64,000 nucleotides of DNA from an uncultured Alphaproteobacteria bacterium (GTDB lineage: Bacteria > Pseudomonadota > Alphaproteobacteria > RF32 > CAG-239): assembly GCA_944392225.1 (NCBI GenBank), contig CALXWB010000004.1:206-64205 (forward strand), given 5' to 3'. The notes under the pieces are model-generated. The model was not told the DNA's origin and did no database searches. It saw nothing but the letters and a program-made list of their open reading frames with translations. A program made the translations under genes and the position numbers. Below, one piece after another: positions 4,089-47,919 of this stretch (position 1 is its first letter; every line of letters starts with the position of its first letter).

Positions 4089-4110
4089 GGTTTAACTCCT
4101 GAAAAAAACT

Positions 4111-4251: not shown

Positions 4252-4337
4252 TCCTTATAAATTCATCTTTTATTTATATATTATCTATATACTCTTAAAT
4301 AGAGTTTAACAAAGCCAAAAAAGAAGTTATCAAGAAG

Positions 4338-4865: not shown

Positions 4866-4866
4866 T

Positions 4867-5301: not shown

Positions 5302-5306
5302 TTTTT

Positions 5307-8487: not shown

Positions 8488-8565
8488 TTTAACCTCCATA
8501 CAGTCTTATTTTTCCTATACTATAACTATATAATATTAATAAATCTTAAACAATCCTAACTTTAG

Positions 8566-9126: not shown

Positions 9127-9132
9127 AACATA

Positions 9133-10266: not shown

Positions 10267-10289
10267 AAATTTTACCTCACATATATATA

Positions 10290-11963: not shown

Positions 11964-11976
11964 TTTTTGCCCGTAA

Positions 11977-14746: not shown

Positions 14747-14761
14747 TTGACCATACCTTTT

Positions 14762-17057: not shown

Positions 17058-17114
17058 AATTTTTACCTATCATACATACTCAAAAATAAATAATCAAGCG
17101 TAAGCAACAACTTA

Positions 17115-18830: not shown

Positions 18831-19119
18831 AGAAACCCCTCTGAAACAGTAGATAAATCAAAATCCGAATCTTGGCAAGAAGAGAAAGAAAATACCCCCA
18901 AATTTGTGGATTCTTTTTGGTGATAAAAAATAAAAGAGGAAGTCATTTGTGCTTAAAAAACAAAAAGATAACTATGAATTTTTTGTTACAGAAAAAAAAT
19001 TTCAATTTAAACAATATGTTAACGATTTTGAACTAAAAAGAAAAGTGCTGGAAAAAAAATTAAAAATCGGATATTCTATAAGAAGAATTAAGGTTGAATT
19101 GTATGTAAGGAGAACAAAA
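18831..19119. promoter_or_regulatory. AT-rich divergent intergenic region between the type IVb pilus operon (minus strand) and the virB2-led T4SS operon (plus strand)
   Basis: About 290 bp without a convincing ORF; the track ORF 18949.. is a GTG-extended read-through into virB2. AAGGAG at 19107-19112 precedes ATG 19120. Promoter elements are not resolved by eye. Confidence 0.4.
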
Positions 19120-19473
19120 ATGCAGTTTATAAAGAAAAACATATGCACAATCCTGAGCTTGGCACTGTTTATAGTGTTAGGTTCGGTTGACAACGCGTTT
19201 GCACAAGCCGATTTGGTTAGAACCGCACAAGACAAAACCGTTGCTGTGTTTAGAGCCGTTAAAAGTATCATCTTTATCGTTGGTGGTTTCGGCTTGGTTG
19301 TTTTGGCCTTTATGGCAATCTTTGGAAAACTTGACTGGAAAAAGTTTTCAATGTTGGCCGTTGGTTTGGCCATTTTGGCTGCCGCCGGTGCCATTGTTGA
19401 TTACGCAACAGGTTCAAGCGAAGGTGAAAGCTTCAATGATAGCTTTAGCAGTTCGGCTCCGGGTAGCTACTAA
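19120..19473 (+). CDS. virB2: VirB2/TrbC-family T4SS pilin, paralogue 1
   Basis: Signal peptide ending 'NAFAQA', then two hydrophobic helices 'IIFIVGGFGLVVLAFMAIFGKLDWKKFSMLAVGLAILAAAGAIVDY'. Classic VirB2 size and topology. First gene of the T4SS operon. Confidence 0.7.
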   Translation: MQFIKKNICTILSLALFIVLGSVDNAFAQADLVRTAQDKTVAVFRAVKSIIFIVGGFGLVVLAFMAIFGKLDWKKFSMLAVGLAILAAAGAIVDYATGSSEGESFNDSFSSSAPGSY

Positions 19474-19519: not shown

Positions 19520-19909
19520 ATGAAAAAAAACATCAAAAATTTTTCAGGCAGTCTCCTTTTTACTTTAATTAACAATAGAAATATATTTCCGATTTTAATA
19601 TTTCTTTTCTTTATGTTTTTCACGCAAGCAGCTTTTGCGGCAGCTGCAACAACAAGCACTTCAACAGGTTTGTTTTCAGAGCTCATAAGCCGTGGAGCAG
19701 AAATTTTTAATGGCATGCGAGACATTATATATGTTGTATCCGGATTTGGCATCATCGGTGTTTCCGTTGGTGGCTTTTTTGGAAACATGAACTGGAAATG
19801 GCTGGGTGCAATTGTCATTGCACTGATGGTCATTGGCTTAACGGGAAGCATACTGAACTTTGTTGTTGGAGGCGAAAGTCAAACCGGCATTACCAATACA
19901 TTAAAATGA
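19520..19909 (+). CDS. virB2: VirB2/TrbC-family T4SS pilin, paralogue 2
   Basis: Signal 'FFTQAAFAAA', then 'IIYVVSGFGIIGVSVGGFFGNMNWKWLGAIVIALMVIGLTGSILNFV'. Shares the GFG...FG..(N/D)WKW core with paralogues 1 and 3. AAGGAG RBS. Confidence 0.65.
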   Translation: MKKNIKNFSGSLLFTLINNRNIFPILIFLFFMFFTQAAFAAAATTSTSTGLFSELISRGAEIFNGMRDIIYVVSGFGIIGVSVGGFFGNMNWKWLGAIVIALMVIGLTGSILNFVVGGESQTGITNTLK

Positions 19910-19923
19910 TGGGGAGAAAACAG

Positions 19924-21093
19924 ATGAAATTCAATTCAAAATCATTTTGGTGTTCAGCCTTTATAATCTTGGCGGTATGTTTATTTGCGTTGGATGCATC
20001 AGCTGCAAGCAACAACATATTGGTTCAGGTAAGGAACCGGGCCGTAAGTCTTCTGATTGCACTCCGTCCTTTAATTTTCCTCATTGCAGGTTTTGGCTTG
20101 ATAGGTTTTGCTTGGGGAGCCATTTTTGGTAAAATAAACTGGAAATGGTTTGCCAACATAGCCATCGGTTTGTTTTTGGTAGCTAATGTCGGCTTGTTTA
20201 TTGACTATTTTGCTTCCAACAATGGCAAATATGAAGAGCTGGGTTATGGAAAATATTTGGATACAGGCTACAATGCCACTGAAGGGAGTTCTGATGATCC
20301 GAAATCGCAGGAAGATCCGGGAGAGGGAACAGCAGGAGAGTCTGAAAGCGGAGAAAATTCGGATTGTGTTCCCGGAACGGGTGTAAACTGCGGAGATAAC
20401 AATGGTTTGATAAATATGGACGTTTCTCCGATAGTGACTGATGAAGATGAAGAAAATATTATAGAAAGCAAGCAAGAAAAACAAGACAGAGAGGATTGTC
20501 AGATTTTGGGCGGAACCTGGAATGGTGCAAGTTGCGATTTTGGAAATGATGTGATTGATGAAGATGCCTTGAAAGACGCAGAAAAAGATTTAGACAAAGA
20601 CCAAAAAGCTTGGGATAAAGAACAGAAAGAACAACAAAAAGAAGAAGAAAAGGCACAAAAAGAGGCTGAAAAAGCTGAAAAAAAGAAAAGAGAAGAAGAA
20701 TATAAGCAGATGAAAGAAAAGGTTGATCAGCAGACAGATGCTTTGAAAGATCAAATCAAGGTTTTGGAAAACCAAGCAAAAGAAGCAGAAAAAGCCTGCA
20801 AAGAGCAGAATAAAGAATGTGAAAATAATGTGGATTTGAAGGTCAGACAAAGTGAAGTCAATTGTGCCAACAATTATGCCAAAACGGAAAATGGAAGTGA
20901 CTATAATAACTCCAGCTATAAAAATTGTATCAATGCGCTGAACTATATGCGAAATAATCTTTCCAACCAATGTTCTCGTCAAAATGACAGTTGTATGAAC
21001 GGTGTAAAAAGCACCCAGCAGCAAATACAAGATTTGGAAAGCCGAATTGAAGATTTGAACAATTCGCTGAAAGAGCTGAAAAATTCAATATAA
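19924..21093 (+). CDS. VirB2-like pilin domain fused to a ~290-aa acidic/Lys-rich, Cys-containing C-terminal extension
   Basis: The N-terminal 110 aa 'ALDASAAS..LIFLIAGFGLIGFAWGAIFGKINWKWFANIAIGLFLVANVGLFIDY' is paralogous to the two preceding pilins. It then has D/E/G-rich, coiled-coil 'KEQKEQQKEEEKAQKEAEKAEKKKREEE' and Cys-spaced segments. Start at ATG 19924 (GGAG upstream); the track start is 19798. Confidence 0.6.
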   Translation: MKFNSKSFWCSAFIILAVCLFALDASAASNNILVQVRNRAVSLLIALRPLIFLIAGFGLIGFAWGAIFGKINWKWFANIAIGLFLVANVGLFIDYFASNNGKYEELGYGKYLDTGYNATEGSSDDPKSQEDPGEGTAGESESGENSDCVPGTGVNCGDNNGLINMDVSPIVTDEDEENIIESKQEKQDREDCQILGGTWNGASCDFGNDVIDEDALKDAEKDLDKDQKAWDKEQKEQQKEEEKAQKEAEKAEKKKREEEYKQMKEKVDQQTDALKDQIKVLENQAKEAEKACKEQNKECENNVDLKVRQSEVNCANNYAKTENGSDYNNSSYKNCINALNYMRNNLSNQCSRQNDSCMNGVKSTQQQIQDLESRIEDLNNSLKELKNSI

Positions 21094-33299: not shown

Positions 33300-33488
33300 A
33301 TGAAAAAATCACTCAAACTTATATGCATCTTATCAGTTCTTTTTCTGTCAGGGTGTTTTGGCTCATATTATGAGGCAGAACCGATTGGCGTCGGAAAAGG
33401 AATAAATGAATTAAAATTATCTCCATGCGCTTGCATGCACTTGGATTTGCCGAAAAATCTGCCGGATTGGTATATAGAAACGATCTAA
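33300..33488 (+). CDS. VirB7-like small outer-membrane lipoprotein
   Basis: 62 aa with lipobox 'FLSGC'. Small Cys/Pro-containing mature peptide with 'LPKNLP'. Located just upstream of the virB8-2/virB9 genes. Confidence 0.5.
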   Translation: MKKSLKLICILSVLFLSGCFGSYYEAEPIGVGKGINELKLSPCACMHLDLPKNLPDWYIETI

Positions 33489-34256: not shown

Positions 34257-35894
34257 ATGATTCAAAAAATAAGGAAAATATTTTTCTTCAACATAATGGC
34301 GATTTTTGTAAGCGTGCCATGTGTTTTTGCGCAAAATAACAGCCTCGATCAAAGTGCAGACCAAGATCAAGGTCAATACCGTTCTATGGATATGTCTTAT
34401 GCCGGGTTCGGCTCAATCGGAATGATGCAAAGTGCCTGGCTTGATCCGTTGCAAAATTTGGGCGAAGGACAAAGCAAGCCGGCATATTCCAAATATTATT
34501 GGTCGCCGGATTTGGTGCTGCCGGTGCGTTTGCGTGAAGGCATGATAACCATGATCAATTTCCCTGATTGGGAGATGGTGGAAGATGTTTATATCGGTGA
34601 CAATTCAACCTTTGACGGCCAAATTTCCGGGCCCAATACGGTTCTTTTATATCCCAAAAAAGGAGCCAATGTGGGTGTTGATACCAACGTGATTATCTTT
34701 GGCCGCTCCGGGAACAGATATGTCTTTTATGTCAGAAGTGAAGGTGTAAACACGGAAAGATTGACAAACTCAATCATAGATATTGAAGTTATTGGCGCCG
34801 ATGATACCGGCAGCCTGGGAAATTCTTCATCCGTGTCAAACGGTGGAAAAGGGGCATCGGCCGGTAGCGGCAACAGCAAATCTTTGGCTTCGACTTATAC
34901 CAAGCGCAACCAAAAGGACGATTGGCTGAAAAGCATTCCCGTAGACCCGGAAAAGTTCAGATTTGATATAGAGGTCTATGTTCCCAATCCCGATGATGTG
35001 GTAATTGCGCCGGAACGTGTTTGGAGAGATGATATTTTCACTTATATAGATTTTGGCAACAAAGCCGTAAATATGACGCAACGCCCGATTGTTACTCTGA
35101 TAAGTGAAAGGGTGGAAACCCCGGTCGGCTTTAGGACCAAAGGTCCAAACAATCGTCTGATGGTTGTTGAGGCCGTTGGTGATATGGTTTTGAGAAACGG
35201 CAAAAGAATAATCTGTCTGAAATTAAGACGTTCGGATGCGGCCGGGCTGGAATATGGCATTTATGCAGATGATGCCGCTCCGGGATGGGATGTTCCGCCT
35301 CCGCTGAAAAAAGGCGATTTGGAAGCTGCGTTTAACACGCAAATGGGAAGCGGAGGAGATTCTGTTCGTGAACAAACCTTTGACACGCAAAACGGCGGAG
35401 AATTTATCTTTCCGCAATACGGACAACAGGGAAGCAATTCCGGCTATGGAAATGGAGCGGGAGCACAATATGGCGGCTATGGCAACAATGCGCCGAGCAT
35501 GCAAAATTCCGCAGCCGGAGCGTATGATTATTCCAAAATGCAAAGGTTGCCGAACCAAACCAATGCCAACATAAACAGCGGCAACAGCAAATATTTGCAG
35601 CAATACGGCTATGGCAGCGGTTTTTCGGATACCAACACCAACATATCAATAGAGCTGGGCACAGATGCTAATGTTGAAAAGTTGGAAACGCTTTGGAACA
35701 CGCTGAACTCAAAATATGGTGCAGACCTTGGCAGATATGAGCCGTTTTATTCCGTGGATGCTCCGGCAGACGGACAAGGCAAAGAGCTGTTTCATTTGCG
35801 GGTCGGGCCGGTCAAGAGTTTGGAAGAAGGCGATGCTGTTTGCTCAAAATTAGGACGTAACGGAATATTTTGTAGTGTAGTAAGAACGCAATGA
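34257..35894 (+). CDS. virB9: VirB9/CagX/TrbG-family outer-membrane core protein with a G/Y/N/Q-rich linker and C-terminal SPOR domain
   Basis: Signal 'PCVFAQN'. VirB9 N-domain 'MITMINFPDWEMVEDVYIGD...VLLYPKK..VDTNVIIFGRSGNRYVFYVRS'. C-domain '..DIFTYIDFG..RPIVTLISE..GPNNRLMVVEAVG'. The last ~84 aa 'ISIELGTDANVEKLETLW..LFHLRVGPVKSLEEGDAVCSKLGRNGIFCSVV' fits the SPOR pattern. Confidence 0.8.
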   Translation: MIQKIRKIFFFNIMAIFVSVPCVFAQNNSLDQSADQDQGQYRSMDMSYAGFGSIGMMQSAWLDPLQNLGEGQSKPAYSKYYWSPDLVLPVRLREGMITMINFPDWEMVEDVYIGDNSTFDGQISGPNTVLLYPKKGANVGVDTNVIIFGRSGNRYVFYVRSEGVNTERLTNSIIDIEVIGADDTGSLGNSSSVSNGGKGASAGSGNSKSLASTYTKRNQKDDWLKSIPVDPEKFRFDIEVYVPNPDDVVIAPERVWRDDIFTYIDFGNKAVNMTQRPIVTLISERVETPVGFRTKGPNNRLMVVEAVGDMVLRNGKRIICLKLRRSDAAGLEYGIYADDAAPGWDVPPPLKKGDLEAAFNTQMGSGGDSVREQTFDTQNGGEFIFPQYGQQGSNSGYGNGAGAQYGGYGNNAPSMQNSAAGAYDYSKMQRLPNQTNANINSGNSKYLQQYGYGSGFSDTNTNISIELGTDANVEKLETLWNTLNSKYGADLGRYEPFYSVDAPADGQGKELFHLRVGPVKSLEEGDAVCSKLGRNGIFCSVVRTQ

Positions 35895-38800
35895 CAAAAA
35901 AAGAAACGGAACAACAAGTTTTAACACATTCTGAAGCTTATGTGAAGAAAACCAACAGAATCATATTGATTGTTGGTTTTACTTCGTTGTTTTTGTTTAT
36001 TGTCGGTGTGGTTTTATTATTAACGGAAGATACCTCAAATTATGAATATGAGGAGCCAAACTTCACGGATAATGCCGATGCCTTGAACATTGGGCAGCAA
36101 AGTCCGCTGTTAAATAACAATATCGAATTTCAAACCATAGAAGAAGATGAGATTCCGATAACATTGACGCCAAATCCTGTGCCGCTCGGTTCGGTTGTTT
36201 TGGGCACGGATGCGCAAAATGTTTTGACCTTGGGAACCAACGGCAAAGCCTCAATCGTCATAACGGCCGTGTTTTTGGCAGAACCGCCGGTAGATGGTTT
36301 TAGTTTTGAAGACAAATGCACGGGGCGGACGTTAACGGGAAAAGACACTTGCCATATTAGCATAAAATGGGTTCCGGTTTTGGCGGGAAATGTTCAAAAT
36401 AACTTTATTATATCTTGGCGAGAGACCAATTTGTCGGCACAGAGCATAAAATCGGAAAAAGTCCCGGTGATCGGAAGCGCCATCACGCAAGAAGAATGCA
36501 ACTATTGTGAAACGCCGATAACATCATCGCCGGCAACATCAAACCAAGGAAAAAAAGTGAGACAAGCCATCGGCCCGGACGGCAAAGTAATTGGTTGGAT
36601 TGATGAAGAAGGCATTGTCAGGGACGAAACCGGCAAGATTATCGGCCGCGTAAACAGCAATGGATTGATTGTTGATGACAATGGCAATGTCATAGGTATT
36701 GCCGACAATCAAAAAATTGTCGTGGATGAAAACGGCAATGTCATCGGCTATGTCGGGGCAGACGGACAAGTGGTGGACAAAAACGGCAATGTTATAGGCA
36801 AAGTTTTGCCGGACGGAACAGTGGTTGATAAAAATGGCAATCTTTTGGGCAAGGTTGTCGAAACGGGCTATGTATATGATGAAAACGGCAATATAATCGG
36901 CCGAGTTTTACCCGATGGCAGTGTTGTTGATGAAAATAATAATGTTATCGGCCGTGTCAATGCAAACGGAGAAGTTGTTGATTTGAACGGCAAAAGGCTG
37001 GGCTATGTCTCCAAGCAAGGCCGTGTTGCCGTAGATAAAAACGGCAATCGCTTGGGCGTTGTTATGCCCAACGGCTCCATTGTTGACAGCAATGGCAACA
37101 TAACCGGCAATTTAGATGATAACGGCAATGTGATAAGAGACAAATTTGTTGGTGTTGTCGGCAATAAGGGCACAATTGCACGAGATGAAAACGGCAATAT
37201 AATCGGCTATGTAAACGGCAAAAATGAGGTCGTAGACGGAGATGGAAAGATTATCGGAAGTGTTGATTCTTCAGGAAAAATCATAGATAAAGACAAAAAA
37301 ATAATCGGAAATGCAGATACCGGGGTCAACTTGGCATTAGACGGCAATGGCAAGGTGATTGGTTATGTAAATTCTCAAGGCCGAACATATGGGTTAAACG
37401 GAGAATTTTTGGGTGAAGCAGATAAAAACGGAAAAATAATTTCCAACATTCCCGAGATTGTGGGCAGCCTGGTAGATACGAGTTTGCTTGCCATAACGCC
37501 TAAAGGCCTGGTTCTTGGAAAAATACAAAATGACGGCACGGTTTTGAATGCGCAAGAGCAAATTGTGGGCAGAGTATTGTCCAACGGCTTGGTCAAAGAC
37601 GTTTCCGGCTCTGAAGTTATCGCCCGAACGCTCAGAGGCGGCACTGTTGTTGGATATGGCTGCACCCAAGTCGGTTCGTTGGATGAAAACGGAAAAATAA
37701 CCAAAAACGGTGCCGACATAGGCGCAAAAGTCAATTTTGACGGCACAATAGTCAGTAACAACGGCGCATTTTTAGGTGCGGTTGTTCCGACGGGAAAAGT
37801 TTTAGATGACAAATGCCAAATTTTGGGTATGGCGGCAGCCGATGGTTTGGTTCGCGATAATGTCGGAAAATATGTTGGTTGTGTCAACCCCGACGGCACG
37901 GTATTAAACGAGCAGGGGACAATTATCGGTAAGGTTTTGGAAAAAGGTTATGCGGCAGACATCAACGATCGCTATTTGGGAAAAATAGGCGATGACGGCT
38001 TTGTTAAAGACAAAGATTCTCGGTCATTGGGTTGTGTCGGCATTTTTGGTGATGTTTTGGATATCAACGGCAAATATATCGGTTCAAGAGTTTCTCAGAA
38101 ATATGCTTTTGATATAGACGGAAACTTTTTGGATATTGTTGACAACACCGGCATGGTTTCATTAACGGGAGAAAATCCGGCGCATCTTTCTTCCAACAAC
38201 TTGGTGATGGATGAAAATAACAAGATTATTGGTTTTGCCATAGACAATCAATCCTTTGTCACGGATGCTGCGGGACAGGTTAAGGGCAGACCTTTTTATG
38301 ATGGCAAGATATATGATTTCAAGGGTGTAAACATCGGCAAAATCAAAGGAAGCAAAAATATCTTTTTAAGCCGAAAGCTAAATGCGCTTCAAAATGCAGA
38401 AATCATAGTTGATTTTGATGGAAAAATTTTAGGAAAGAGCACTCCTGATGGCAAGGTCGTGAGTCGTTTTGGTGAAAAGTTAGGTAAAATAGACGGCAAA
38501 GGCAGATTCTTCAACCAAGAAGGCATCTATCAGGGCGGATACTTGAAAAAAGGTGCTGCCATAGGCTATAACGGCGCATATCTGGGCTATGTAACCAACC
38601 GCGGCATTGTGAAAGATTTGGACGGTCAAGACAACGGCAAAGTGACTTCTGATGGAAAAGTTTTGGACAATAAAGGCAAAATAGCCGGAGAGGTTGTTCC
38701 CAAAGGAGCCGTAATTGACAGCAACGGCCATTATGTCGGCACGTCTGACGGCTTGGGCGAAATATTGAATATGAAAGATGAAACAATCGGCATTATATTG

Positions 38801-39328
38801 CCCGGTGGTTTTTCAGAGCAAAGCTATAGCGTCATAAAAGAAGGCGGCATTATGGACTATTCCGGCAACATTGCGGGAAGTATTTTACCAAATGGTAAAA
38901 TTATCGATATCAATAATATGCAAGTTGGGCAGATTCTTCCCGATGGCAGCGCCATAAGTGAAAACGGCAAACTTTATGGCGAGATATTAGACGGGGACAT
39001 TGTCATCGGAAATGATGATAAAGTTGTGGGTTATGTGAATATTGATGGTACAATAATTGCAAAAGATGGTAATATCATTGGCAGAACCCTGTCGCGAGAC
39101 TTGGCCGTGAGTAACAACGGAGAAATATTGGGCCGCATTTTCAAGCTTGGTGTGAGCATATTAAATGACAAAGGAGAATATGTCGGCCGTTTGTCACCTC
39201 AGGGAGAAGTTCTTGATATGCAAGGAAAAACAATAGGTTATATAAAGAACAACGGCTCTTTTATAAATTTGGATAAAAAAATTGCAGGATATGCACTGCA
39301 AGAGGTGGCAAAAAACCGGAGGAATTAA
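35891..39328 (+). CDS. Giant (1145 aa) bitopic protein: N-terminal TM, Ig-like (choice-of-anchor-D/ASH-like) domain, then dozens of 17-residue repeats
   Basis: ATGA overlap with virB9. TM 'IILIVGFTSLFLFIVGVVLLL'. 'PLGSVVLGTDAQNVLTLGTNGKASIVI...FSFEDKCTGRTLTGKDTCHISIKWVPVLAGN'. The repeats then run 'DENGNVIGYVGADGQVV/DKNGNVIGKVLPDGTVV/DENGNIIGRVLPDGSVV...' to the C-terminus. Confidence 0.7.
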   Translation: MTKKETEQQVLTHSEAYVKKTNRIILIVGFTSLFLFIVGVVLLLTEDTSNYEYEEPNFTDNADALNIGQQSPLLNNNIEFQTIEEDEIPITLTPNPVPLGSVVLGTDAQNVLTLGTNGKASIVITAVFLAEPPVDGFSFEDKCTGRTLTGKDTCHISIKWVPVLAGNVQNNFIISWRETNLSAQSIKSEKVPVIGSAITQEECNYCETPITSSPATSNQGKKVRQAIGPDGKVIGWIDEEGIVRDETGKIIGRVNSNGLIVDDNGNVIGIADNQKIVVDENGNVIGYVGADGQVVDKNGNVIGKVLPDGTVVDKNGNLLGKVVETGYVYDENGNIIGRVLPDGSVVDENNNVIGRVNANGEVVDLNGKRLGYVSKQGRVAVDKNGNRLGVVMPNGSIVDSNGNITGNLDDNGNVIRDKFVGVVGNKGTIARDENGNIIGYVNGKNEVVDGDGKIIGSVDSSGKIIDKDKKIIGNADTGVNLALDGNGKVIGYVNSQGRTYGLNGEFLGEADKNGKIISNIPEIVGSLVDTSLLAITPKGLVLGKIQNDGTVLNAQEQIVGRVLSNGLVKDVSGSEVIARTLRGGTVVGYGCTQVGSLDENGKITKNGADIGAKVNFDGTIVSNNGAFLGAVVPTGKVLDDKCQILGMAAADGLVRDNVGKYVGCVNPDGTVLNEQGTIIGKVLEKGYAADINDRYLGKIGDDGFVKDKDSRSLGCVGIFGDVLDINGKYIGSRVSQKYAFDIDGNFLDIVDNTGMVSLTGENPAHLSSNNLVMDENNKIIGFAIDNQSFVTDAAGQVKGRPFYDGKIYDFKGVNIGKIKGSKNIFLSRKLNALQNAEIIVDFDGKILGKSTPDGKVVSRFGEKLGKIDGKGRFFNQEGIYQGGYLKKGAAIGYNGAYLGYVTNRGIVKDLDGQDNGKVTSDGKVLDNKGKIAGEVVPKGAVIDSNGHYVGTSDGLGEILNMKDETIGIILPGGFSEQSYSVIKEGGIMDYSGNIAGSILPNGKIIDINNMQVGQILPDGSAISENGKLYGEILDGDIVIGNDDKVVGYVNIDGTIIAKDGNIIGRTLSRDLAVSNNGEILGRIFKLGVSILNDKGEYVGRLSPQGEVLDMQGKTIGYIKNNGSFINLDKKIAGYALQEVAKNRRN
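36536..39310 (+). repeat. Degenerate in-frame 51-bp (17-codon) repeat array inside the 1145-aa ORF
   Basis: The periodicity is seen in the translation: consensus about D-x-[ND]-G-x-[VI]-[IL]-G-x-[VI]-x-x-[DN]-G-x-V-[VI]. The DNA copies are diverged. Boundaries are approximate. Confidence 0.7.
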
Positions 39329-39334
39329 ACTTTA

Positions 39335-42300
39335 ATGCTGCAAACCCGAAAAATACAAAGCCAAATAAAGAAAATAAACCAAATATTGATTTGTTGTTTG
39401 GTTTGTTTGCTTTTAAATGTAAACAGCACGCAGGCGCAGGAGATCACGGCCATAAATTTTAACGGCGATTTGCTTGGAAAAGTGATTCCCGACGGCAACG
39501 TAATAGGTTTTGATAACAGCATTATCGGCAAGGTAACGGCAGATAGTTTCATTGTTGACTTCAACGAAGAAATAATCGGCGGTATTGTTCCGCAGGGTGT
39601 TGCCATTGGAAATGATACCAAACTTTTGGGCAAAATAAATACAGACGGGACGGTCCGTTCTCCAAGCGGCAATATAATCGGCAAGACCTTGCCCAACGGT
39701 ATGGTTGTTAATGACTATTATGAGATTTTGGGAGCTGTTTTGTTCCCGGGTTTGGTTTATGGAGATTCCGGGCAAACGGTTGGTCGTTTGACCGGCGACG
39801 GAGATTATGTCAACCTCAAGGGACAAAAAATTGGTTTCATCACCCCGGATGGATATGCTTATCGCAAGGTGGCGGAAGATTATGTTCTTGATGGACGGTT
39901 AATATCATCAAAGATGGTCGTTTCATCAGAAGGCGAGTTTTTGGGAAGTGTTTCTCCCGGCGGCGAAGTTTATGACTTTGACGGCAAAAAAATCGGAAAT
40001 CTGAAAGCCAATGGCTACGTTTATAATGAGCAAGGCCGGGTAATCGGTGGTATTGTAAAATCGGGATACGCTTTTGACAATTTTGGCAGCTATTTGGGTT
40101 ACATCAGCTACAACGGCTTTGTGTTAGACAAAGGCAAACAGGTTGGCAGGTTGCGTGCAGACGGAAAAATAATCAATGATAAAAAAGAAGTTATTGGTAT
40201 TTTTGTCGGTGCCGATACGGCCGCAACGGATTCTAAAGGAAAATATTTGGGTCGCTTGCTTCCCAATGGCAAAATTGCTCCGGCCAATGAAGGAAAATAT
40301 ACGCTTTCGGCAAGAAAAAACGTTGTTGATGCGCAAGGTTCATCCCTTGGCAAACTAGTTGCCTCAGGCCCGATTATCAACTACTTAGGCAAAAATATAG
40401 CGCATGCCCTTCCTTGCGGAAAAATAATTTCTTTTGCCGGCAACACCATGGGATATACTAAGGGAGAAGATGCCTACAACACGCAGGGAAAAATTATGGG
40501 CAAAGTTTCTCAGCCGATGTTGGCTTGGCTCCAAAATGACGGATTAGCAACTCTGAGCGGAATTTCTGCACAAGTGGAAATGGCCGGCAATGTTTATTAT
40601 CTGTCTCCTTTTGGTTATAGCATTAGTGCAGAGGGAAACTTTGGTGGAAAAACATTTGCCCCGCAACCGATATATAATCAAATCGGGGCAATTCCCGGAG
40701 AGATAACACTTAACGGAGAGCTAAGCAGTGCGGATAACACGGCAAAATTATATCCTTCGGGCTATATTTTTACACCGCAGGGAGAAATGTTCGGAAAGCT
40801 GATTTCTGCATCATATGCACAAAATTTTGCAGATGTTTCGGCCGGTGTGCTTTCAGAAAATAATTTAGTTCTGGATAAAGAAAAAAAGATCATCGGAAAA
40901 ATTTTGCCCGGGTTGGATGTTGTATCAACAGATAAAGAAAACAGCACCAATATTCGCCCGATTATGGGAAAAGCCTCAGATTCAAACATGGCCATTTCAT
41001 TTGAGGGCATTTTGAACGGATATGTAAATGAAGAAGGCAACGTGCTTGATTTTTCATCAAACAAAATCGGCCAAATCAGTTCGGAAGGCTGGTTGATAGA
41101 CAACAACGGCACAATAACGGGCTTTACCGAAAAAGTAAAACCGATCAGAGATGAAAATTGTGCCTTTTTGGGGGTGCTCACACCAAGCGGAGATGTAAAA
41201 AATACCAAAGACATTTATATGGGGAAAATACTTGGTAACGGTCAAGTAATAAATGATTCGGAAACTATCATCGGCTATGGTGACACACCTCAAGCCCTGA
41301 TTGATGAAAACGGAAAAATAATAGGAACTTCGGATTCTTTGGGGCAGGCAAAAGATTTAAAAGGCAATGTTTTGGGTTGCCTGTCCACACAGGGATATTT
41401 ATATAGCAAAGATAATCAGTTGTTGGGCGGTAAAATAATTTTTGGCAACGTGATAGATTTTTCAAATCAAATTATCGGCAGTGTCAATGCCACCGGCCAA
41501 ATAGACGATGCCAACGGCACCAACATAGGCCATGTTCAACCGCAAGGCAACGTGGTTAACAAAGCCGGCAAAACATTGGGACAAATTATGCAATATGCGG
41601 TTGCTTTCAGAAATGATGGCCGCTATTTGGGATATGTCCGAGCCTCAACGGCAGAAGTTTTGAATGGCAAAAAAGAGGTTGTCGGCAAAGTCAATTTTGA
41701 CGGAAGCATCGTATTAGATAAAAAGAAAATAGGCTTTGCTCTTTATGATATGTATATCTATGACCAAAACAAAAAAGCCATCGGCATTATTGGGCGCGAT
41801 GGTGTTGTCCGCAGCTTTAATAATCGGATTCTCGGTGAAATAAAACGCGGGTTTGTCGTAGATAAAAACGACAAGGTTATAGCGCGTGGCAACCGAGATT
41901 ATTTTATCCGCAATGCAGATAAAGAAATAATCGGAGAGCTGGGCTTAGACGGAAGGGTCCTGGATTCTGAGGGGCGTGAAGTTGGAAAACTTGGAATAGC
42001 CGGAGAAATTGTTTCTGCCGAAAAAGGAAAAATAGCACAAGCTTATCCTCTGCAATATTATAGCAAAATCAGTGCGGAAGACGATTCTCGCGGTGATATT
42101 GCGTTGTCTGCAGATGGCAAAATTTTAGGCTATGTTGACGAGGATAAAAACGTCATAGATGCCAACGGCAACCTGATAGGAACGCAAGATGCAAAAGGTT
42201 TTATAAGAAACGGAAATAATGAAATTATCGGCCGAGTAATAAATCCGAACAATGTGGTAGACCAAGAAGGCAACATCATTGGCAAAAAAGATGAAAATGG

Positions 42301-44383
42301 TGTTGTGAGAGATGAAACTGGGGTTGAAATCGGCAGGATAGATGCCTCTGGTTTTATGAAAAACGGTGAGGGAAAGGTTACCGGTTTTGGTGCCGATAGC
42401 AATAACATTTATAATGAAGACGGAAACATCATCGGTCGTTTGAACGAGATGGGCAATGTTATAAATACCGAAGGTAAGAAGATTGGCGAAAAAGATTCAA
42501 ACAACAACATTGTTGATGAAAAAGGCAACGTCATCGGCATATTAGATGACAGCAATGCCGTAAGAGACAAAGACGGAAAAATCATAGCACATGTTCAACC
42601 CGATAATCAGGTTGCAGATTTTGCCGGCAAAATCATCGGCACGAAAAATGCTGCCGGAAAAATAGTCGATTCTTTGGGCGAAATCATCGGTCAAGTTTTT
42701 GCAGATGGCCGAGTTTTTGATGAAAGGGGCAACTTTGTCGGTCAAATCCAAGGAGATGGTTCGGTTAAAGATATCAACCAAAAAACAATAGGCAAACTCA
42801 ATGCCGACGGCACGGTTGTAAACGCCAACAACAGCATAATCGGCGGCATAGGTCGCGGTTGGTATGAAAAAGTCACCCCGCTTGAGAAGAAAGAAGAATC
42901 AGATGTTTTGCCGATAGGAACGCTTGGCAATACAGGTTCGGTCGGCCAAGGTGGAAAATATAGAAAATCATTGAACATAGCCTTAACGCCGGATGGAGAT
43001 TATCTGGGAGATATAATGGAAGATGGCAGTGTTGTTAATAAAAACGGCAAGGTCATTGGTCAAAAAACGCCAGATGGGCTGATTATTGATAAAGACGGCA
43101 CGTTGATAGGCATAGAAGAAATAAAGAAACCTGCGGGAGGAGATATTTTTGTTCCGGCCGGCACATTTGGCCAAGGTTCAGCCTACGGCATCGGAACAGG
43201 TCCGGGGGATAACTTAGGGCCAGGCGGCGGCTATGGCCCCGGAGAAAGATACAATGCGCAAAGGAGTGCGGCTTTGGCGGTAGCACAAGGGCAAAGACGT
43301 CAAAATATGCAAGTAGGCAAAATCAGCTCTTCAATCAGGAAAGAAGCTTTTGACGGCATGCAAAAAGATTGGAGCGACCAAGGTATTGATAAAATCTTGT
43401 CTTCATGGCGTGTAGACATGAGCGAAATGATATTGGCAGACAAGCCGATTCCGGCAGTCTTAGCCCGTTCAATTGATTCATCCAACCCCACCCCGGTTAC
43501 AGCATTTGTTGAAAGAAACGTTTATGCCGAAGAAGGCAGAAACGTGTTGATTCCTGCCGGCAGCCGGTTGATTGGTGAGTTTAACAGCATGGGGGCAGAG
43601 CAAGAAGCATCATCTGAAGCCGTCAAAGTTCAAATTAGTTGGCAGAGGCTGATTCGCCCGGATGGTTCAATGTTTAAGTTTGATGGTGTAACGGCAGATG
43701 CTCAAGGCAGAGGCGGTGCATTGGGATATTTGGACAGACAATTGTTCAGTCGATACAGTATGCCTTTGTTAACCACAGTTCTAACCAGCACAACGGCATA
43801 TTTGATGGCAGATGATTCAGAAACATCTGGAGAAACGGAATCCTCAAAGCAGCAAGCAGCTAATGATGCAAGACAAAATTTCTTAGATCAGATGAATCAA
43901 GTCTTTTCAAAAATTTTGGATGATAAAGCAGACATTGTTCCTTTGTCATATGTTCCGGCCGGCACCAGAATTATTGTCTTTCCAAAATCAGATTTATGGT
44001 TAAGAAGCATTGATCGTGATAAAGAAGAAAGCAGTGCCGCGATGGAGCGTCCGAAAGTTTTGATTGATGACCAAGCAAGATTGAGAGATGATAACAATAA
44101 TGGAAGCAGATCAGGACAAAGCAGCACAAGCAGCGGTTCTTCATCAGATAATGGTCAGGTTACCTATGAAGAAAATCAGACAAAATCCCGCCCGTTGATT
44201 GCACCGGAAAGATACAGTAAATCAAACAATAACACGCAACAACGCCAGGTTATAGTTCCGCCGCCGCCGCCGTCAACATCGGGAGCAACCTCAAGCAGAG
44301 CAAGTTCGGGTTCAGGCAACAGCAGCGCAAACAGTAGTTCTGGAAATTCAAATAAAAATAATTCTGTCCCGCAATTGTTTTAA
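39335..44383 (+). CDS. virB10: Repeat-expanded VirB10/TrbI-family protein (1682 aa; CagY/DotG-like architecture)
   Basis: N-terminal hydrophobic segment 'ILICCLVCLLLNV', then >1000 aa of the same 17-residue repeat. Next a Gly-rich segment, then a canonical TrbI/VirB10 core: 'ILADKPIPAVLARSIDSSNPTPVTAFVERNVYAEEGRNVLIPAGSRLIGEF...VQISWQRLIRPDGSMFKFDGVTADAQGRGGALGYLDRQ...YVPAGTRIIVFPKSDLWL'. Ends in a Ser/Asn-rich tail with PPPPP. Confidence 0.85.
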   Translation: MLQTRKIQSQIKKINQILICCLVCLLLNVNSTQAQEITAINFNGDLLGKVIPDGNVIGFDNSIIGKVTADSFIVDFNEEIIGGIVPQGVAIGNDTKLLGKINTDGTVRSPSGNIIGKTLPNGMVVNDYYEILGAVLFPGLVYGDSGQTVGRLTGDGDYVNLKGQKIGFITPDGYAYRKVAEDYVLDGRLISSKMVVSSEGEFLGSVSPGGEVYDFDGKKIGNLKANGYVYNEQGRVIGGIVKSGYAFDNFGSYLGYISYNGFVLDKGKQVGRLRADGKIINDKKEVIGIFVGADTAATDSKGKYLGRLLPNGKIAPANEGKYTLSARKNVVDAQGSSLGKLVASGPIINYLGKNIAHALPCGKIISFAGNTMGYTKGEDAYNTQGKIMGKVSQPMLAWLQNDGLATLSGISAQVEMAGNVYYLSPFGYSISAEGNFGGKTFAPQPIYNQIGAIPGEITLNGELSSADNTAKLYPSGYIFTPQGEMFGKLISASYAQNFADVSAGVLSENNLVLDKEKKIIGKILPGLDVVSTDKENSTNIRPIMGKASDSNMAISFEGILNGYVNEEGNVLDFSSNKIGQISSEGWLIDNNGTITGFTEKVKPIRDENCAFLGVLTPSGDVKNTKDIYMGKILGNGQVINDSETIIGYGDTPQALIDENGKIIGTSDSLGQAKDLKGNVLGCLSTQGYLYSKDNQLLGGKIIFGNVIDFSNQIIGSVNATGQIDDANGTNIGHVQPQGNVVNKAGKTLGQIMQYAVAFRNDGRYLGYVRASTAEVLNGKKEVVGKVNFDGSIVLDKKKIGFALYDMYIYDQNKKAIGIIGRDGVVRSFNNRILGEIKRGFVVDKNDKVIARGNRDYFIRNADKEIIGELGLDGRVLDSEGREVGKLGIAGEIVSAEKGKIAQAYPLQYYSKISAEDDSRGDIALSADGKILGYVDEDKNVIDANGNLIGTQDAKGFIRNGNNEIIGRVINPNNVVDQEGNIIGKKDENGVVRDETGVEIGRIDASGFMKNGEGKVTGFGADSNNIYNEDGNIIGRLNEMGNVINTEGKKIGEKDSNNNIVDEKGNVIGILDDSNAVRDKDGKIIAHVQPDNQVADFAGKIIGTKNAAGKIVDSLGEIIGQVFADGRVFDERGNFVGQIQGDGSVKDINQKTIGKLNADGTVVNANNSIIGGIGRGWYEKVTPLEKKEESDVLPIGTLGNTGSVGQGGKYRKSLNIALTPDGDYLGDIMEDGSVVNKNGKVIGQKTPDGLIIDKDGTLIGIEEIKKPAGGDIFVPAGTFGQGSAYGIGTGPGDNLGPGGGYGPGERYNAQRSAALAVAQGQRRQNMQVGKISSSIRKEAFDGMQKDWSDQGIDKILSSWRVDMSEMILADKPIPAVLARSIDSSNPTPVTAFVERNVYAEEGRNVLIPAGSRLIGEFNSMGAEQEASSEAVKVQISWQRLIRPDGSMFKFDGVTADAQGRGGALGYLDRQLFSRYSMPLLTTVLTSTTAYLMADDSETSGETESSKQQAANDARQNFLDQMNQVFSKILDDKADIVPLSYVPAGTRIIVFPKSDLWLRSIDRDKEESSAAMERPKVLIDDQARLRDDNNNGSRSGQSSTSSGSSSDNGQVTYEENQTKSRPLIAPERYSKSNNNTQQRQVIVPPPPPSTSGATSSRASSGSGNSSANSSSGNSNKNNSVPQLF
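39470..43110 (+). repeat. Degenerate in-frame 17-codon repeat array inside the virB10 homologue
   Basis: Examples: 'NDTKLLGKINTDGTVRS/PSGNIIGKTLPNGMVVN' early and 'DEKGNVIGILDDSNAVR/DKDGKIIAHVQPDNQVA' late. Same consensus as the upstream ORF. Boundaries are approximate. Confidence 0.7.
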
Positions 44384-45361: not shown

Positions 45362-45380
45362 GAAAATGCTTTTCACAAAA

Positions 45381-45408
45381 AAAAGACCAAAATTTTTGGT
45401 CTTTTTTT
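45381..45408. terminator. Bidirectional rho-independent terminator between convergent virB11 and the 45421..46050 gene
   Basis: AAAAGACCAAAA / TTTTTGGTCTTTTTTT palindrome (stem AGACCAA / TTGGTCT) with flanking A- and T-runs. Confidence 0.7.
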
Positions 45409-45420
45409 GTAGATAAATAA

Positions 45421-46050
45421 TTATTGCAACGGAGGAATGTTAAATTGCGCAATTTCTCCGGGTTTAATTTTTTTATTGGAATAGCGCATATTTCCCGTTT
45501 CAATGATAAAGCGTTGTCTTCCTGTGAGTTGAGAAGCCAAATCATAAAAATCGCTGGCGATCAGTTCTTGACGCTGCGGATTCATAATATACAAGACGCA
45601 GCCCTGAGTTTTTTCTGCCACGCCGCAACGAGCGCGTCCTCTTGGCACTTCTGAATTAACAACCACGCCCTGCAAGCCGTCACGCACAATAGTTTGCTGA
45701 GCAAAGAAAATTTTGGCAAAGATCAGGCCGACGACAAAGGCAACCACGCCAACAATGACTGAGATTTTATTTTCAGATATTTTTGTGAGCAGGGGTGCTT
45801 TTTGCTGTTCGGGATAAAGCTCGTTTTCGCTGATGAAATGCGGCTGATTATTATTAGCAAGATTGTCGGTATCAAAAGCAGTGATGGCTGTATGCTCGGA
45901 AAAATCAGCGGGAGCATTTTCTCTGTTTTGCGGAGCGACCTGCGGTTGATAAGGTTGTCCGGCGGCGCCTTGAGGGTTGACTCTTTTAATTGGGCGTTTA
46001 ACTTTTTTCAAGCGTTTATTATTAGCATAGATTATCTCATCATTATCCAT
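45421..46050 (-). CDS. Bitopic membrane protein of unknown function (last gene of the secretin-like module)
   Basis: 209 aa. Basic/Pro-Gln-rich cytoplasmic N-terminus, a single TM 'ISVIVGVVAFVVGLIFAKIFF', and a ~95-aa C-terminal domain with a Cys pair 'RCGVAEKTQGC'. There is a 21-nt gap after the secretin-like gene. Confidence 0.5.
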   Translation of the reverse strand: MDNDEIIYANNKRLKKVKRPIKRVNPQGAAGQPYQPQVAPQNRENAPADFSEHTAITAFDTDNLANNNQPHFISENELYPEQQKAPLLTKISENKISVIVGVVAFVVGLIFAKIFFAQQTIVRDGLQGVVVNSEVPRGRARCGVAEKTQGCVLYIMNPQRQELIASDFYDLASQLTGRQRFIIETGNMRYSNKKIKPGEIAQFNIPPLQ

Positions 46051-46071
46051 TTCAAACTCCTCGTCGCAAAA

Positions 46072-47331
46072 TTAAATTTTGTTTTGTAAATGTTGAGAAC
46101 TTTTCATAGTTCTGATAATTCTAGGCACCATAAACACAATAGATTGTGAATTTTTGCCCTGGATACCAAAGATTTCATTAGGAATACCGATAATCAAGAA
46201 ATTTTCCCCGAGTTGGCTGCGAATGGAAAATTGGGTAATTTCGCCGCCGGTTGAATCGAGTGTGATATTAGAAAAAATCTTATTATTTTGTTCCAAAGAA
46301 GCTTTAGCCAAGATAGAAAGGTTGGCGTCGATATCTTTTCTGTTGCCGCATTTACCGACATCAAAACGGGCATACCAGAGGTTTGGCACAACAAATTTAC
46401 CCTGAGCAACGGGTTCAACGCGCCCTTGCCGGCTGAGAAAAGCAACCAACGAGCTGATATTGAGGTCATTAGAGGCGGTCAAAACGCGGCCGATAACACC
46501 GCTTTTGGCAGATTTAATTGTGCCATAGTCAAAAGTGTTGAGCAGTTTTTGCCATTCAATATCGTTATGTTTTGTGTTGGGATAAACTTTCAAGACATAA
46601 ACATCGAAAGCAATCAATGTTGGATTTTCTTCAAAATATCCGATGAGGGTAAGAATTTTGTTTCTCAGCTCAAAATCTGCATCAAAAGTAATGGAATAGT
46701 CGTCCCAATTTGAGGTCACATCGGTGATTCCGGCTCCGCGCAAAACATCAAGCAAAGCAAGCAAAATGGGGCGGGACTTTGGCACATAAAGACTAAAATT
46801 TGCTTTTCGGCTGATACGCAGTGTTTTATTATGCGCATCATAAGAATAATAAATTTCGGCGGCATCGGCAATCATCTTAATCACTTCAGAAAGTTCTCCG
46901 CGCAAGTTTTCGGCAGAAATACTGGCATACGGGGCATCTTTTGCCACCAGCTTGATTCCGGCCTCTTTGGTAAGTTTGAGCAGTGCTTTTTCGGCAGGCA
47001 TCATACCGAAAGAAAAGCCGGTAACTTCGAACCTGGGCAGCATATCATTATTGCCGTTTTGCACCAAATTAAAAGCCTTAACATTATAAGGAATGGTTGT
47101 AATCATTTGCTGTGTCTGCCAGTTGACGGAACAGCGTAACGGTGTTTCAAGGTCAAACATACTGGCGCCTTTAGGGGTTCTAATCATATTAGGGTTTTGC
47201 GGCAAAGAGATTTTGGCCTCAAGGCCTGATTTTTTAAAATTAATGGCGGGTTCTTGAGTTTTTTGAGCCTGGCAGGCGCACAAGAAGAAAAGGAGCAAAA
47301 ACAATGTATATTTTTTGAGTGTATCAAACAT
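46072..47331 (-). CDS. Short secretin-family outer-membrane (lipo)protein, second secretin in the window
   Basis: Signal with 'FFLCAC'. N0-like 'GELSEVIKMIADAAEIYYSYDAHNKTLRISRKANFSLYVP' parallels the pilus secretin's 'GSLSGLLNEVASRFGVWWKYDKNQILFYKYETRTFTVYSLP'. Secretin-core pattern: 'IAFDVYVLKVYPNTKHNDIEWQ', 'LVAFLSRQGRVEPVAQGKFVVPNLWYARFDVG', 'LSILAKASLEQNNKIFSNITLD', 'GENFLIIGIP...SIVFMVPRII'. Confidence 0.6.
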   Translation of the reverse strand: MFDTLKKYTLFLLLFFLCACQAQKTQEPAINFKKSGLEAKISLPQNPNMIRTPKGASMFDLETPLRCSVNWQTQQMITTIPYNVKAFNLVQNGNNDMLPRFEVTGFSFGMMPAEKALLKLTKEAGIKLVAKDAPYASISAENLRGELSEVIKMIADAAEIYYSYDAHNKTLRISRKANFSLYVPKSRPILLALLDVLRGAGITDVTSNWDDYSITFDADFELRNKILTLIGYFEENPTLIAFDVYVLKVYPNTKHNDIEWQKLLNTFDYGTIKSAKSGVIGRVLTASNDLNISSLVAFLSRQGRVEPVAQGKFVVPNLWYARFDVGKCGNRKDIDANLSILAKASLEQNNKIFSNITLDSTGGEITQFSIRSQLGENFLIIGIPNEIFGIQGKNSQSIVFMVPRIIRTMKSSQHLQNKI

Positions 47332-47334
47332 TTT

Positions 47335-47919
47335 TTATTGACCTTTGTCAGAAACATTTTGCGGTTGCGGCCGAGGTTGAGGTTGCGGCTGAGGTTGCGG
47401 CTTTGGTTGCAAGGGGTCAGGTTCAGCAGGGGCTGCATCGGGAGCAATATTTTGTTTGAGCATCAATTTTTCAATAACCTCATCCATACTCATACCGGCA
47501 CCGACGGTGGGATCCTGAGATTTATCAACGGAGCCGAGAGCCTCTCTCATTTTTTCAAGCTCTTGAGCCGTATCTTGTTTGATCATATCCGGCGTAGAAT
47601 TACTGCGCAATTCGGTTTTATATTCATTCAAATTTTTTTTGAAAGCATTCATGCCGCCGGCAATTTTCTTTTCAACATAAGGGTAAAGTTCTTTATGTTC
47701 CAAAATAAAATCTCCGCTTTCGCTGATTTCTTCCAAAACATCCAAAATATAATTATAAAAAGGATATTCTTCAATGGCAATATTTCCTTTGCGCACGCAG
47801 CGTGCAGCAATTCTGGAGATGGTTCTGTCCAGATAATCTTTGAGCAAGATATAGTTATCCAAGACCCATAAAACGTCTTTGCTGACAGGCGGCAGATTAT
47901 TATTTTGTTGTTCCGGCAT
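47335..47919 (-). CDS. Soluble hypothetical protein with a C-terminal (PQ)n tract
   Basis: 194 aa with no signal peptide or TM. Helical acidic body. Ends 'PDPLQPKPQPQPQPQPRPQPQ'. There is a 3-nt gap to the secretin-like gene. Confidence 0.5.
   Translation of the reverse strand: MPEQQNNNLPPVSKDVLWVLDNYILLKDYLDRTISRIAARCVRKGNIAIEEYPFYNYILDVLEEISESGDFILEHKELYPYVEKKIAGGMNAFKKNLNEYKTELRSNSTPDMIKQDTAQELEKMREALGSVDKSQDPTVGAGMSMDEVIEKLMLKQNIAPDAAPAEPDPLQPKPQPQPQPQPRPQPQNVSDKGQ

Follow-up and report, generated by a model that had tools for sequence, protein, structure and literature searches.

A divergent lipoprotein secretin homologue without gates and its genomic partners in Alphaproteobacteria

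To our knowledge, every secretin of solved structure closes its lumen with two hairpins, GATE1 and GATE2, and serves a filament-assembly machine, i.e., a type II or type III secretion system (T2SS or T3SS), a type IV pilus or a filamentous phage. The physical barrier is the inner-barrel hairpin GATE1, which kinks at the equivalent of GspD Gly453 and is buttressed by the hairpin that follows, GATE2; upon gate opening the pore of InvG widens from ~15 to ~75 Angstrom (PMC6155069). Here, we analyzed a stretch of 64,000 nucleotides from an uncultured alphaproteobacterium (GenBank assembly GCA_944392225.1, contig CALXWB010000004.1, positions 206 to 64,205; in the following the window), which encodes the 419-amino acid (aa) protein p419 within the locus of a VirB-type type IV secretion system (T4SS). 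A first-pass annotation of this DNA had described p419 and its direct neighbors p194 and p209 as an orphan secretin-like lipoprotein module. We lean toward the reading that p419 is a divergent protein of the secretin superfamily, which stems from the BfpB/PilN-type lineage and has lost its gates, that it would form a Lol-sorted outer-membrane ring that a canonical gate cannot close, and that it is embedded here in a T4SS locus which we take to resemble the Rickettsiales vir homologue (rvh) T4SS.

BfpB, which belongs to the bundle-forming pilus, a type IVb pilus, is a lipoprotein secretin with the domain order LG-N0-N3-secretin and without an S domain (PMC12531336; BfpB-BfpG structure PDB 9u5s). 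Secretins of the BfpB/PilN/TcpC-type are the closest sequence relatives of p419, to which they are connected via a bridging clade of true secretins. The likeness comprises the lipobox, the linker, the N0 domain, a single N3 domain and the secretin domain, the lack of an S domain and of a need for a pilotin, and a small envelope protein encoded after the secretin. In contrast to these proteins, p419 is ~115–130 residues shorter, has neither the GATE1 hairpin nor the GATE2 hairpin nor the post-GG loop and is recognized neither by the Pfam Secretin nor by the NCBIfam PilN models. Moreover, no TcpQ/BfpG-like partner was detected and the p419 gene cassette encodes no pilin, ATPase or platform protein. 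The export secretin pIV of phage f1 (PDB 7ofh, chain of 414 aa) is similar to p419 in overall size and in the minimal N0-N3-secretin layout. However, pIV is not a lipoprotein, possesses functional GATE1 and GATE2 segments to which leaky mutants map (PMC6155069), and works with the phage pI/pXI ATPase, whereas there is no phage context at p419. Next to the secretins themselves, the T4SS outer-membrane lipoproteins VirB7 of Xanthomonas (XAC2622; N0 at the C-terminus; PMC3093366) and DotD of Legionella (PMC2951367) contain a secretin-type N0 domain, which sets a precedent for the occurrence of secretin modules in the outer-membrane complex of a T4SS. They carry N0 only, without the N3 domain and the barrel that p419 both has. 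Furthermore, the window encodes a separate small VirB7 candidate, and the p419 family also occurs without T4SS genes nearby.

In its layout, the T4SS of the window presumably resembles the rvh T4SS. Shared features are a duplicated virB8 with a small virB7 in between, several large VirB6-like proteins, multiple VirB2-like proteins and the order virB9-virB10-virB11; a difference is that the VirB10 of the window (1682 aa) and its 1145-aa neighbor carry beta-flower repeats. We know of no secretin-like gene described for rvh systems. A systematic survey of the protein families associated with T4SSs (PMC4027160) likewise contains no secretins, and the literature searched yielded no description of gate-less, minimal or T4SS-associated secretins or of the T4SS of the gut lineage treated here.

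The homology of p419 to secretins becomes apparent only with sensitive methods. None of the secretin models of Pfam and NCBIfam, including the PilN-family model TIGR02520, matched p419, even at E ≤ 1, the distant family members P0121, P0138 and P0170 did not match any Pfam or NCBIfam model at this threshold either, and p419 gave no Pfam match to CagX, TraK or LolA. A total of 925 homologues with intact reading frames was found, none of which has a Pfam annotation. The first-pass annotation had made its proposal dependent on hits to secretin models, and judged by these curated models alone it fails. A different result was obtained with a family profile constructed from 40 of the 925 homologues and searched against 1.8 billion representative sequences. 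It retrieved 201 representatives, the most distant of which are proteins of 440–845 aa (E 1e-15 to 1e-7); Pfam Secretin was present in ten of ten such distant matches tested, in some of them together with STN or a C-terminal TcpQ fusion. The profile-profile comparison by hhalign of 36 diverse family members (alignment A3) with 27 true secretins from the bridging clade (alignment A2) resulted in a probability of 99.95% and an E value of 1.3e-38, with residues 73–415 of p419 aligned through N0, N3 and the whole core. Among proteins of solved structure, BfpB is the best match of the bridging clade (E 3e-35), the f1 export secretin being a weaker relative (E 1e-10). This connection to the PDB was made via the true-secretin clade, because the family profiles A1 and A3, when searched against PDB sequences, yielded chance matches only (e.g., flavodoxin, TRUB1). 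The silence of the curated hidden Markov models (HMMs) on p419 is a failure in sensitivity of these models and not an argument against homology.

The window contains a second and longer secretin of 547 aa (Pfam Secretin, E 7e-16; PilN family TIGR02520, E 3.5e-79), which belongs to an R64-like type IVb pilus cluster at 7909–18830 and from which p419 is distinct, in agreement with the first-pass annotation. The strength of the claimed parallel between the N0 domains of the two proteins depends on the kind of comparison. Direct hhalign comparison of the p419 N0 domain with the pilus secretin is weak (E 0.0013, probability 18%), and direct BLASTP and hhalign comparisons of p419 with this secretin and with a 571-aa neighbor yielded a weak match confined to N0 or nothing; bridged through profiles, the likeness of the p419 N0 domain to that of this pilus secretin is solid. 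Next to the pilus cluster, the region 1182–6272 of the window encodes a protein with weak likeness to lanthionine synthetases (LanL/LanKC-type), a PP2C phosphatase, a TlpA-like thiol-disulfide oxidoreductase and a PilT-like ATPase (5307–6272).

Comparison at the level of the fold leads to the same assignment. The 34 best matches of the AlphaFold monomer model of p419 in a Foldseek search against the PDB are all secretins (E 3e-8 to 1e-3), namely ExeD, GspD, XcpQ, PulD, PilQ, InvG, MxiD and RcpA. The model has a mean predicted local distance difference test (pLDDT) score of 60.8, reaching 70–86 over most of the C-terminal half. A VirB9/TraK-like or LolA-like fold, which had been named as the competing assignment, does not occur among the Foldseek matches with E ≤ 0.001, which are 32 secretins. 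The secretin-core pattern of p419 is real only at the level of profile-profile and fold comparison. Judged from its sequence, p419 is a genuine, very divergent secretin homologue with lipobox, N0 and N3 domains and a secretin core, and the whole family is annotated everywhere as “hypothetical protein” as a consequence of being missed by the curated HMMs.

The core of p419 is shortened at the gates. Segment lengths were read in the hhalign register of the 36 family members and the 27 true secretins and are alignment-based. The distal GATE1 hairpin (G326–L338 in p419) is reduced to 9–11 residues in 36/36 family members compared to 30–38 residues in true secretins, the GATE2 loop to 7–8 residues in all 36 members compared to 28–32, and the loop following the “GG” strand has a length of 8–21 compared to 21–37 residues. 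The N0 domain (78–79 vs. 78–86 residues) and the N3 domain (53–54 vs. 54–56 residues) are of similar length in both groups; the whole core comprises 145–170 residues (median 158.5) in the family and 209–246 residues (median 226) in true secretins. In the model, the N3 region shows the alpha/beta pattern H187–199, E205–208, E213–218 and H220–235, the LG-like linker is of low confidence and the chain ends ~10 residues beyond the last barrel strand. The deletions are uniform among members that are 25–84% identical to p419, arguing for a conserved design and not for decay. The residues invariant across these 36 diverse members include Cys67 in the N-terminal linker (motif LETPLRC; window ~47131–47133) and Cys328 in the GATE1 stump (RFDxGxC, two residues past the hinge glycine; window ~46348–46350). 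A putative disulfide between Cys67 and Cys328 would place the linker where the missing gate would be. At the N-terminus, p419 shows a lipobox-like LCAC motif, whose Cys20 is invariant in the close family (alignments A1 and A4); in most members of the diverse alignment a cysteine is found at the end of the hydrophobic region. As both gates are deleted family-wide, which the first-pass annotation had not noted, a normal gated secretin pore is unlikely.

Shortening of this kind could also mark decay, p419 then being a functionless remnant of a pilus secretin or of a filamentous-phage (pIV-type) secretin, for which the size of p419 close to that of the f1 secretin chain, the pilus-type nature of the nearest true secretins and the weak likeness of the adjacent double helix-turn-helix (HTH) regulator to the phage repressors RstR and CI may be quoted. 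This explanation is barely credible and is effectively refuted because conservation is family-wide: the 925 homologues have intact frames and many invariant residues, and the deletions are of the same extent across the family. Furthermore, no relatives of the p419 family were found in IMG/VR, and the vicinity of the cassette contains neither a Zot- or pI-like gene nor coat genes. The sole match in INPHARED is GenBank MT835708.1 (L173; “UNVERIFIED: Bacteriophage sp.”, from human feces), a misclassified bacterial contig that is colinear with the window over VirB6-like genes, HTH regulator, p808, p194, p419 and p209. On these grounds, a phage origin was rejected.

The nearest true secretins are encoded in pilus-type clusters consisting of the secretin, a small protein and a T2SSE ATPase. 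The nearest one, P0229, is encoded directly after VirB8 and CagX genes in locus L088. This locus (contig SRR24236066_10262, 101–6142) encodes a 571-aa Pfam-Secretin lipoprotein preceded by VirB8 and CagX/VirB9 and followed by a T2SSE-type ATPase, and might have arisen by fusion of a T4SS locus with a module of pilus-type secretin and ATPase. A remote family member was found in a cultured alphaproteobacterium, i.e., WP_115418396.1 (377 aa; E 2.4e-15 vs. the family profile) on the megaplasmid NZ_CP031358.1 of Erythrobacter aureus YH-07 (L172, 11728–12861), which retains the Gly-Cys stump. This protein has a plain signal peptide without lipobox, and its gene follows that of a 1304-aa hypothetical protein among further hypothetical genes.

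Table 1. Features of p419 and of the surrounding gene cassette (window coordinates).
Feature	Position	Strand	Description
p419	46072..47331	minus	419 aa; gate-less lipoprotein mini-secretin with signal peptide/lipobox, linker, N0, N3 and shortened core
Signal peptide and lipobox of p419	47272..47331	minus	residues 1–20, MFDTLKKYTLFLLLFFLCAC; Cys20 putative lipidated residue
N0-like domain of p419	46795..47037	minus	~residues 99–179; aligns with N0 of true lipoprotein secretins
N3-like ring-building domain of p419	46615..46782	minus	~residues 184–239; hhalign
Shortened secretin core of p419	46123..46605	minus	~residues 243–403; model pLDDT 70–86 over most
GATE1 stump of p419	46318..46356	minus	G326–L338; “F-x-V-G” hinge glycine and only 11 residues, including invariant Cys328
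p209	45421..46050	minus	209 aa; bitopic inner-membrane protein
p194	47335..47919	minus	194 aa; soluble helical, (PQ)n tail
p808	48012..50438	minus	acidic repeat protein; first gene of four-gene block
Double-HTH (XRE-type) regulator	51020..51991	minus	Pfam HTH_3 twice
Bidirectional intrinsic terminator, p209/virB11 interval	45378..45410 (about)		-15.4 kcal/mol, z = -4.9

The gene arrangement reported earlier was found in the sequence as described, i.e., three packed open reading frames on the minus strand, the quoted peptide strings, the lipobox, the PQ-tailed p194 and the bitopic p209, and a strong terminator shared with virB11 (Table 1). The genes p194 and p419 are separated by 3 nt, p419 and p209 by 21 nt containing a GAGGAG Shine-Dalgarno sequence. 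virB11 is convergent to p209, and the terminator hairpin between the two, flanked by A- and U-tracts on both sides, is not reached in folding energy by any of 200 shuffled sequences. Pfam and NCBIfam scans of the p194-p419-p209 module confirmed that it encodes no ATPase, platform protein or pilin.

None of the partner proteins belongs to an informative family according to Pfam and NCBIfam scans of p194, p209, p808 and their distant orthologues. p194, without Pfam family, has no hydrophobic segment, is soluble and ends in the (PQ)n tail; the p194-like genes of other lineages encode the C-terminal domain of acidic proteins of 300–498 aa or are cut to ~107 aa. The bitopic p209 has a basic N-terminus, followed by a transmembrane helix (residues 88–117) and a ~90-aa C-terminal domain with the invariant residues Cys142 and Cys151; in its model, only the helix is predicted with confidence. 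p209 gave no Pfam match and no profile link to TcpQ-, PilO- or PilP-type partners. p808 has no signal peptide. It possesses a conserved N-terminal domain (motif NIFRQ.H) that is kept in the distant cassettes L086 and L090, and at 48055–48719 its gene contains 6.2 tandem copies of a 108-nt unit encoding 36 acidic, Trp-rich aa (SDEDWDWEYEEVPDD), which are 90% identical to one another and seen only in the lineage of the window. Long acidic low-complexity tails are common to p808 and the p194-like proteins.

Locus L077 contains p808-p194-p419-p209 in inverted orientation as one block, which immediately follows virB11 and is encoded on the same strand as this gene. p808 belongs to the cassette because it inverts together with the other three genes. 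Relatives of p419 with 25–42% identity retain the order of a p808-N-like, a p194-like, a secretin-like and a p209-like gene, with p209 directly downstream also in L082, L083, L086 and L091, and in L086, L089 and L090 as well as in L092, L094 and L125 the cassette is directly preceded by the double-HTH regulator. The genes p194-p419-p209 constitute together with p808 and the double-HTH regulator a conserved cassette. Designation of p419 as an orphan is not tenable: it is a member of a large conserved family with fixed partners, which are a p194-like protein, p209 or LolCE/LolD, and often the double-HTH regulator.

The distribution of the family was analyzed by scanning a genome collection containing one genome per species with the alignment A4, which revealed relatives encoded at 326 places. 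The best 80 of these 326 loci are all located in metagenome-assembled genomes (MAGs) of human or animal gut Alphaproteobacteria, for example “Proteobacteria bacterium CAG:495,” “Azospirillum sp. 51_20” and Candidatus Scatocola. One of these MAGs (MGYG-HGUT-03859) contains two copies of the p419 gene on two contigs (L038 and L066; 66% and 68% identical to that of the window), which could be a pair of paralogues or the product of a strain-mixed bin. Context was counted in the 80 best loci plus L001, 81 in all, with denominators varying by count. p194 is directly upstream in 80/80, p209 directly downstream in 69/69 and the double-HTH regulator present in 57/60 loci; T4SS genes are less than 10 kb away in 69/72 loci. 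In the window, the cassette sits between the VirB6-like and the virB8-virB11 gene sets. The upstream side encodes two VirB6/TrbL paralogues of 670 and 458 aa, a protein of 1020 aa and one of 1195 aa that contains M23-peptidase and VgrG3-C-like domains; the other side consists of the convergent genes virB8-virB7-virB8-virB9-(beta-flower protein)-virB10-virB11. As the inverted block of L077 still abuts virB11, the cassette stays next to the T4SS in the gut lineage.

From this adjacency it might be concluded that p419 is a dedicated T4SS accessory, i.e., that the ring is a structural or conduit part of the rvh-like T4SS, e.g., an additional outer-membrane portal through which the VirB2-type pilus or large effectors would pass, and that the family as such has this function. 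T4SS genes on both flanks of the cassette, an adjacency that survived the inversion, the N0 domains of Xanthomonas VirB7 and DotD, and P0229 with its VirB8 and CagX neighbors agree with it, as does the 31%-identity relative in L086, which has the same regulator and two VirB6-like genes upstream. We nevertheless regard it as unlikely. The gut loci are all close kin (at least 62% identity), so that shared synteny is weak evidence, secretins were absent from the survey of T4SS-associated families cited above, and the distant relatives, in housekeeping neighborhoods, are not near a T4SS: none of 52 distant loci has a T4SS gene within 10 kb, and none among the 18 of these with at least 9 kb on both sides, with probes that detected VirB8 and VirB9 in an unrelated T4SS locus used as control. 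The contrast between 69/72 gut loci and 0/52 distant loci argues that a T4SS pore is not the general function of the family, and dependence on a T4SS does not hold for the entire family. Only in the gut lineage and in L086 is the cassette associated with a T4SS. The earlier suggestion of an accessory pore recruited to the T4SS thus survives as adjacency in the gut lineage and not as family function; in this lineage, the cassette has probably been co-regulated with or co-opted by the T4SS.

In addition, the T4SS has its own VirB7/9/10 set, as besides VirB9 and VirB10 a canonical VirB7 candidate is present, a 62-aa lipoprotein with LSGC lipobox (MKKSLKLICILSVLFLSGC) encoded between the two virB8 genes (33300–33488, plus strand). 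The existence of this small candidate led us to reject p419 as the VirB7; p419 also does not conform to a VirB7-type protein, since it has an N3 domain and a full barrel core and is encoded convergent to virB11.

Beta-flower repeats (Pfam Bflower_2, E 5.5e-71 and 2.5e-61) fill the VirB10 homologue of 1682 aa (TrbI domain at residues 1366–1556) and the preceding 1145-aa protein (window 35891–44383, plus strand), which is, for a VirB-type T4SS, an unusual degree of elaboration of the periplasmic or outer part. Two VirB2-like genes are located at 18949–19473 and 19798–21093, and no VirD4 was found among the open reading frames scanned in the window. The 1195-aa protein (52126–55713, minus strand; M23 peptidase, E 3e-29; VgrG3-C-like peptidoglycan hydrolase, E 2e-23), which is VirB6-paralogue-like in its remainder, could serve the T4SS by degrading the cell wall or act as an antibacterial effector, and the 140-aa secreted protein encoded at 50583–51005 could be an immunity factor.

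The first-pass annotation had alternatively suggested a minimal, undescribed unit for export or uptake. The terms undescribed and secretin-based are correct, the autonomous exporter lacks an energy source and an exportable neighbor. According to this idea, p419 and p209 form a conduit across two membranes for export of p808 and p194 or for uptake of a substrate, independent of the T4SS. The four genes do move as one block, p194-like proteins accompany the secretin-like gene, and p808 and the p194-like proteins carry the long acidic tails mentioned above. However, the cassette encodes no ATPase or other source of energy, p808 and p194, lacking both a signal peptide and a hydrophobic segment, have no evident route across the inner membrane, and a distant subgroup of the family has neither p808 nor p209 and a p194 of only ~107 aa. 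Taken together, this makes an autonomous unit improbable.

This distant subgroup was recognized in L089 and L090, two long chromosomal contigs without a T4SS gene within 10 kb, in which the secretin-like gene is followed by lolCE and a lolD-like gene with overlapping stop and start codons. The LolCE protein next to the distant relatives reaches 442 bits compared to the curated cutoff of 362. An assignment of this ABC system as MacB-type exporter with the secretin homologue as exit duct was rejected, as it consists of LolCE and a LolD-like ATPase without a membrane-fusion protein. A metagenome scan seeded with the lol-linked subgroup yielded 80 more loci (L092–L171). In the subgroup, lolCE is located at most 1.1 kb downstream in 60/60 loci and a p194-like gene upstream in at least 53/70; p209 is found in none of the loci and p808 is absent. 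Accordingly, the three-gene unit p194-p419-p209, proposed for a synteny search, is conserved in the gut lineage and loses p209 in the lol-linked subgroup, and the context in distant relatives shows that the invariant core is composed of the p194-like and the secretin-like gene. The neighborhood is of housekeeping type with uvrB, tsaE and ftsA/ftsQ-like genes. In 34/35 long lol-linked loci, a 126-aa lipoprotein (MRIKFLCLFLLLGAC) is encoded ~0.8 kb upstream of the secretin-like gene on the opposite strand, adjoining the ftsQ-like and ftsA-like genes. The position directly upstream of lolCE-lolD is the most widespread context of the family. Across 160 related loci, no ATPase, platform protein or pilin is encoded in the cassette or nearby; the contexts are a T4SS with p209 or lolCE-lolD, and not the complete T2SS, type IV pilus or phage clusters from which a translocated fragment might have been derived.

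No lolB is identifiable beyond the beta- and gamma-Proteobacteria (PMC9963962), and for this reason the linkage to lolCE-lolD is the most intriguing lead. It might be that the protein is an envelope-biogenesis factor tied to lipoprotein trafficking, in which a gate-less ring works with LolCDE, e.g., by inserting or surface-exposing outer-membrane lipoproteins where LolB is lacking. The invariable adjacency, the codon overlap, the LolCE score above the curated cutoff and the housekeeping neighborhood speak for it. On the other side, trafficking without LolB is already accounted for in Caulobacter by a bifunctional LolA (PMC9963962), in the gut lineage the gene is located away from the lol genes and accompanied by p209 instead, nothing in secretin biology points to an activity as lipoprotein insertase, and the operon linkage may reflect only that the p419-type protein is a client of the Lol system. 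Such a role is quite improbable. We also attach little credence to its extension, by which an unrecognized secretin-derived ring that has permanently lost its gate serves envelope biogenesis with LolCDE in LolB-less Alphaproteobacteria, the gut lineage having secondarily moved it with the new partner p209 into the rvh-like T4SS locus.

For the reading toward which we lean, a gate-less secretin homologue of BfpB/PilN-type descent, the following mechanism can be envisaged. p419 would be exported by the Sec system, lipidated at Cys20 and delivered by the Lol system to the outer membrane, possibly being self-piloting as BfpB. There, N3 domain and barrel strands would oligomerize into an outer-membrane ring with a lumen that is unsealable by a canonical gate and either open or plugged otherwise. 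In the gut lineage, p209 might tether this ring to the inner membrane via its periplasmic two-cysteine domain in analogy to the binding of N0 by GspC or PilP, and a functional coupling to the T4SS may exist. Several observations weigh against this picture. An ungated channel of ~7 nm would leak, so that another plug is needed or the protein is not an open pore. The curated secretin HMMs fail to detect p419, its model is only moderate, with a pLDDT below 50 for residues 48–146, and the global template modeling scores against secretin subunits are ~0.2, values that are expected when a monomer model is compared to subunits taken from assembled rings. The fold of p209 is not predicted (pLDDT ~50 in the periplasmic domain), and hhalign comparison of the p209 family with the TcpQ domain, PilO-like proteins and small post-secretin proteins revealed no similarity. 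Moreover, nothing observed connects p419 physically with the T4SS, whose VirB7 candidate, VirB9 and VirB10 are encoded separately, and the adjacency to lolCE-lolD could represent conserved gene order rather than function.

As a summary, the gate-less mini-secretin family with its new partners is a real and previously undescribed feature. If the reading is true, it extends what the secretin scaffold can serve, as the ring and barrel parts are kept while the gates are gone and no filament machine is present, and one would have to ask what prevents leakage through a ring without gates. The two genomic partnerships of the family, with lolCE-lolD and with a bitopic protein in a T4SS locus, lead to testable biology in poorly known gut Alphaproteobacteria.

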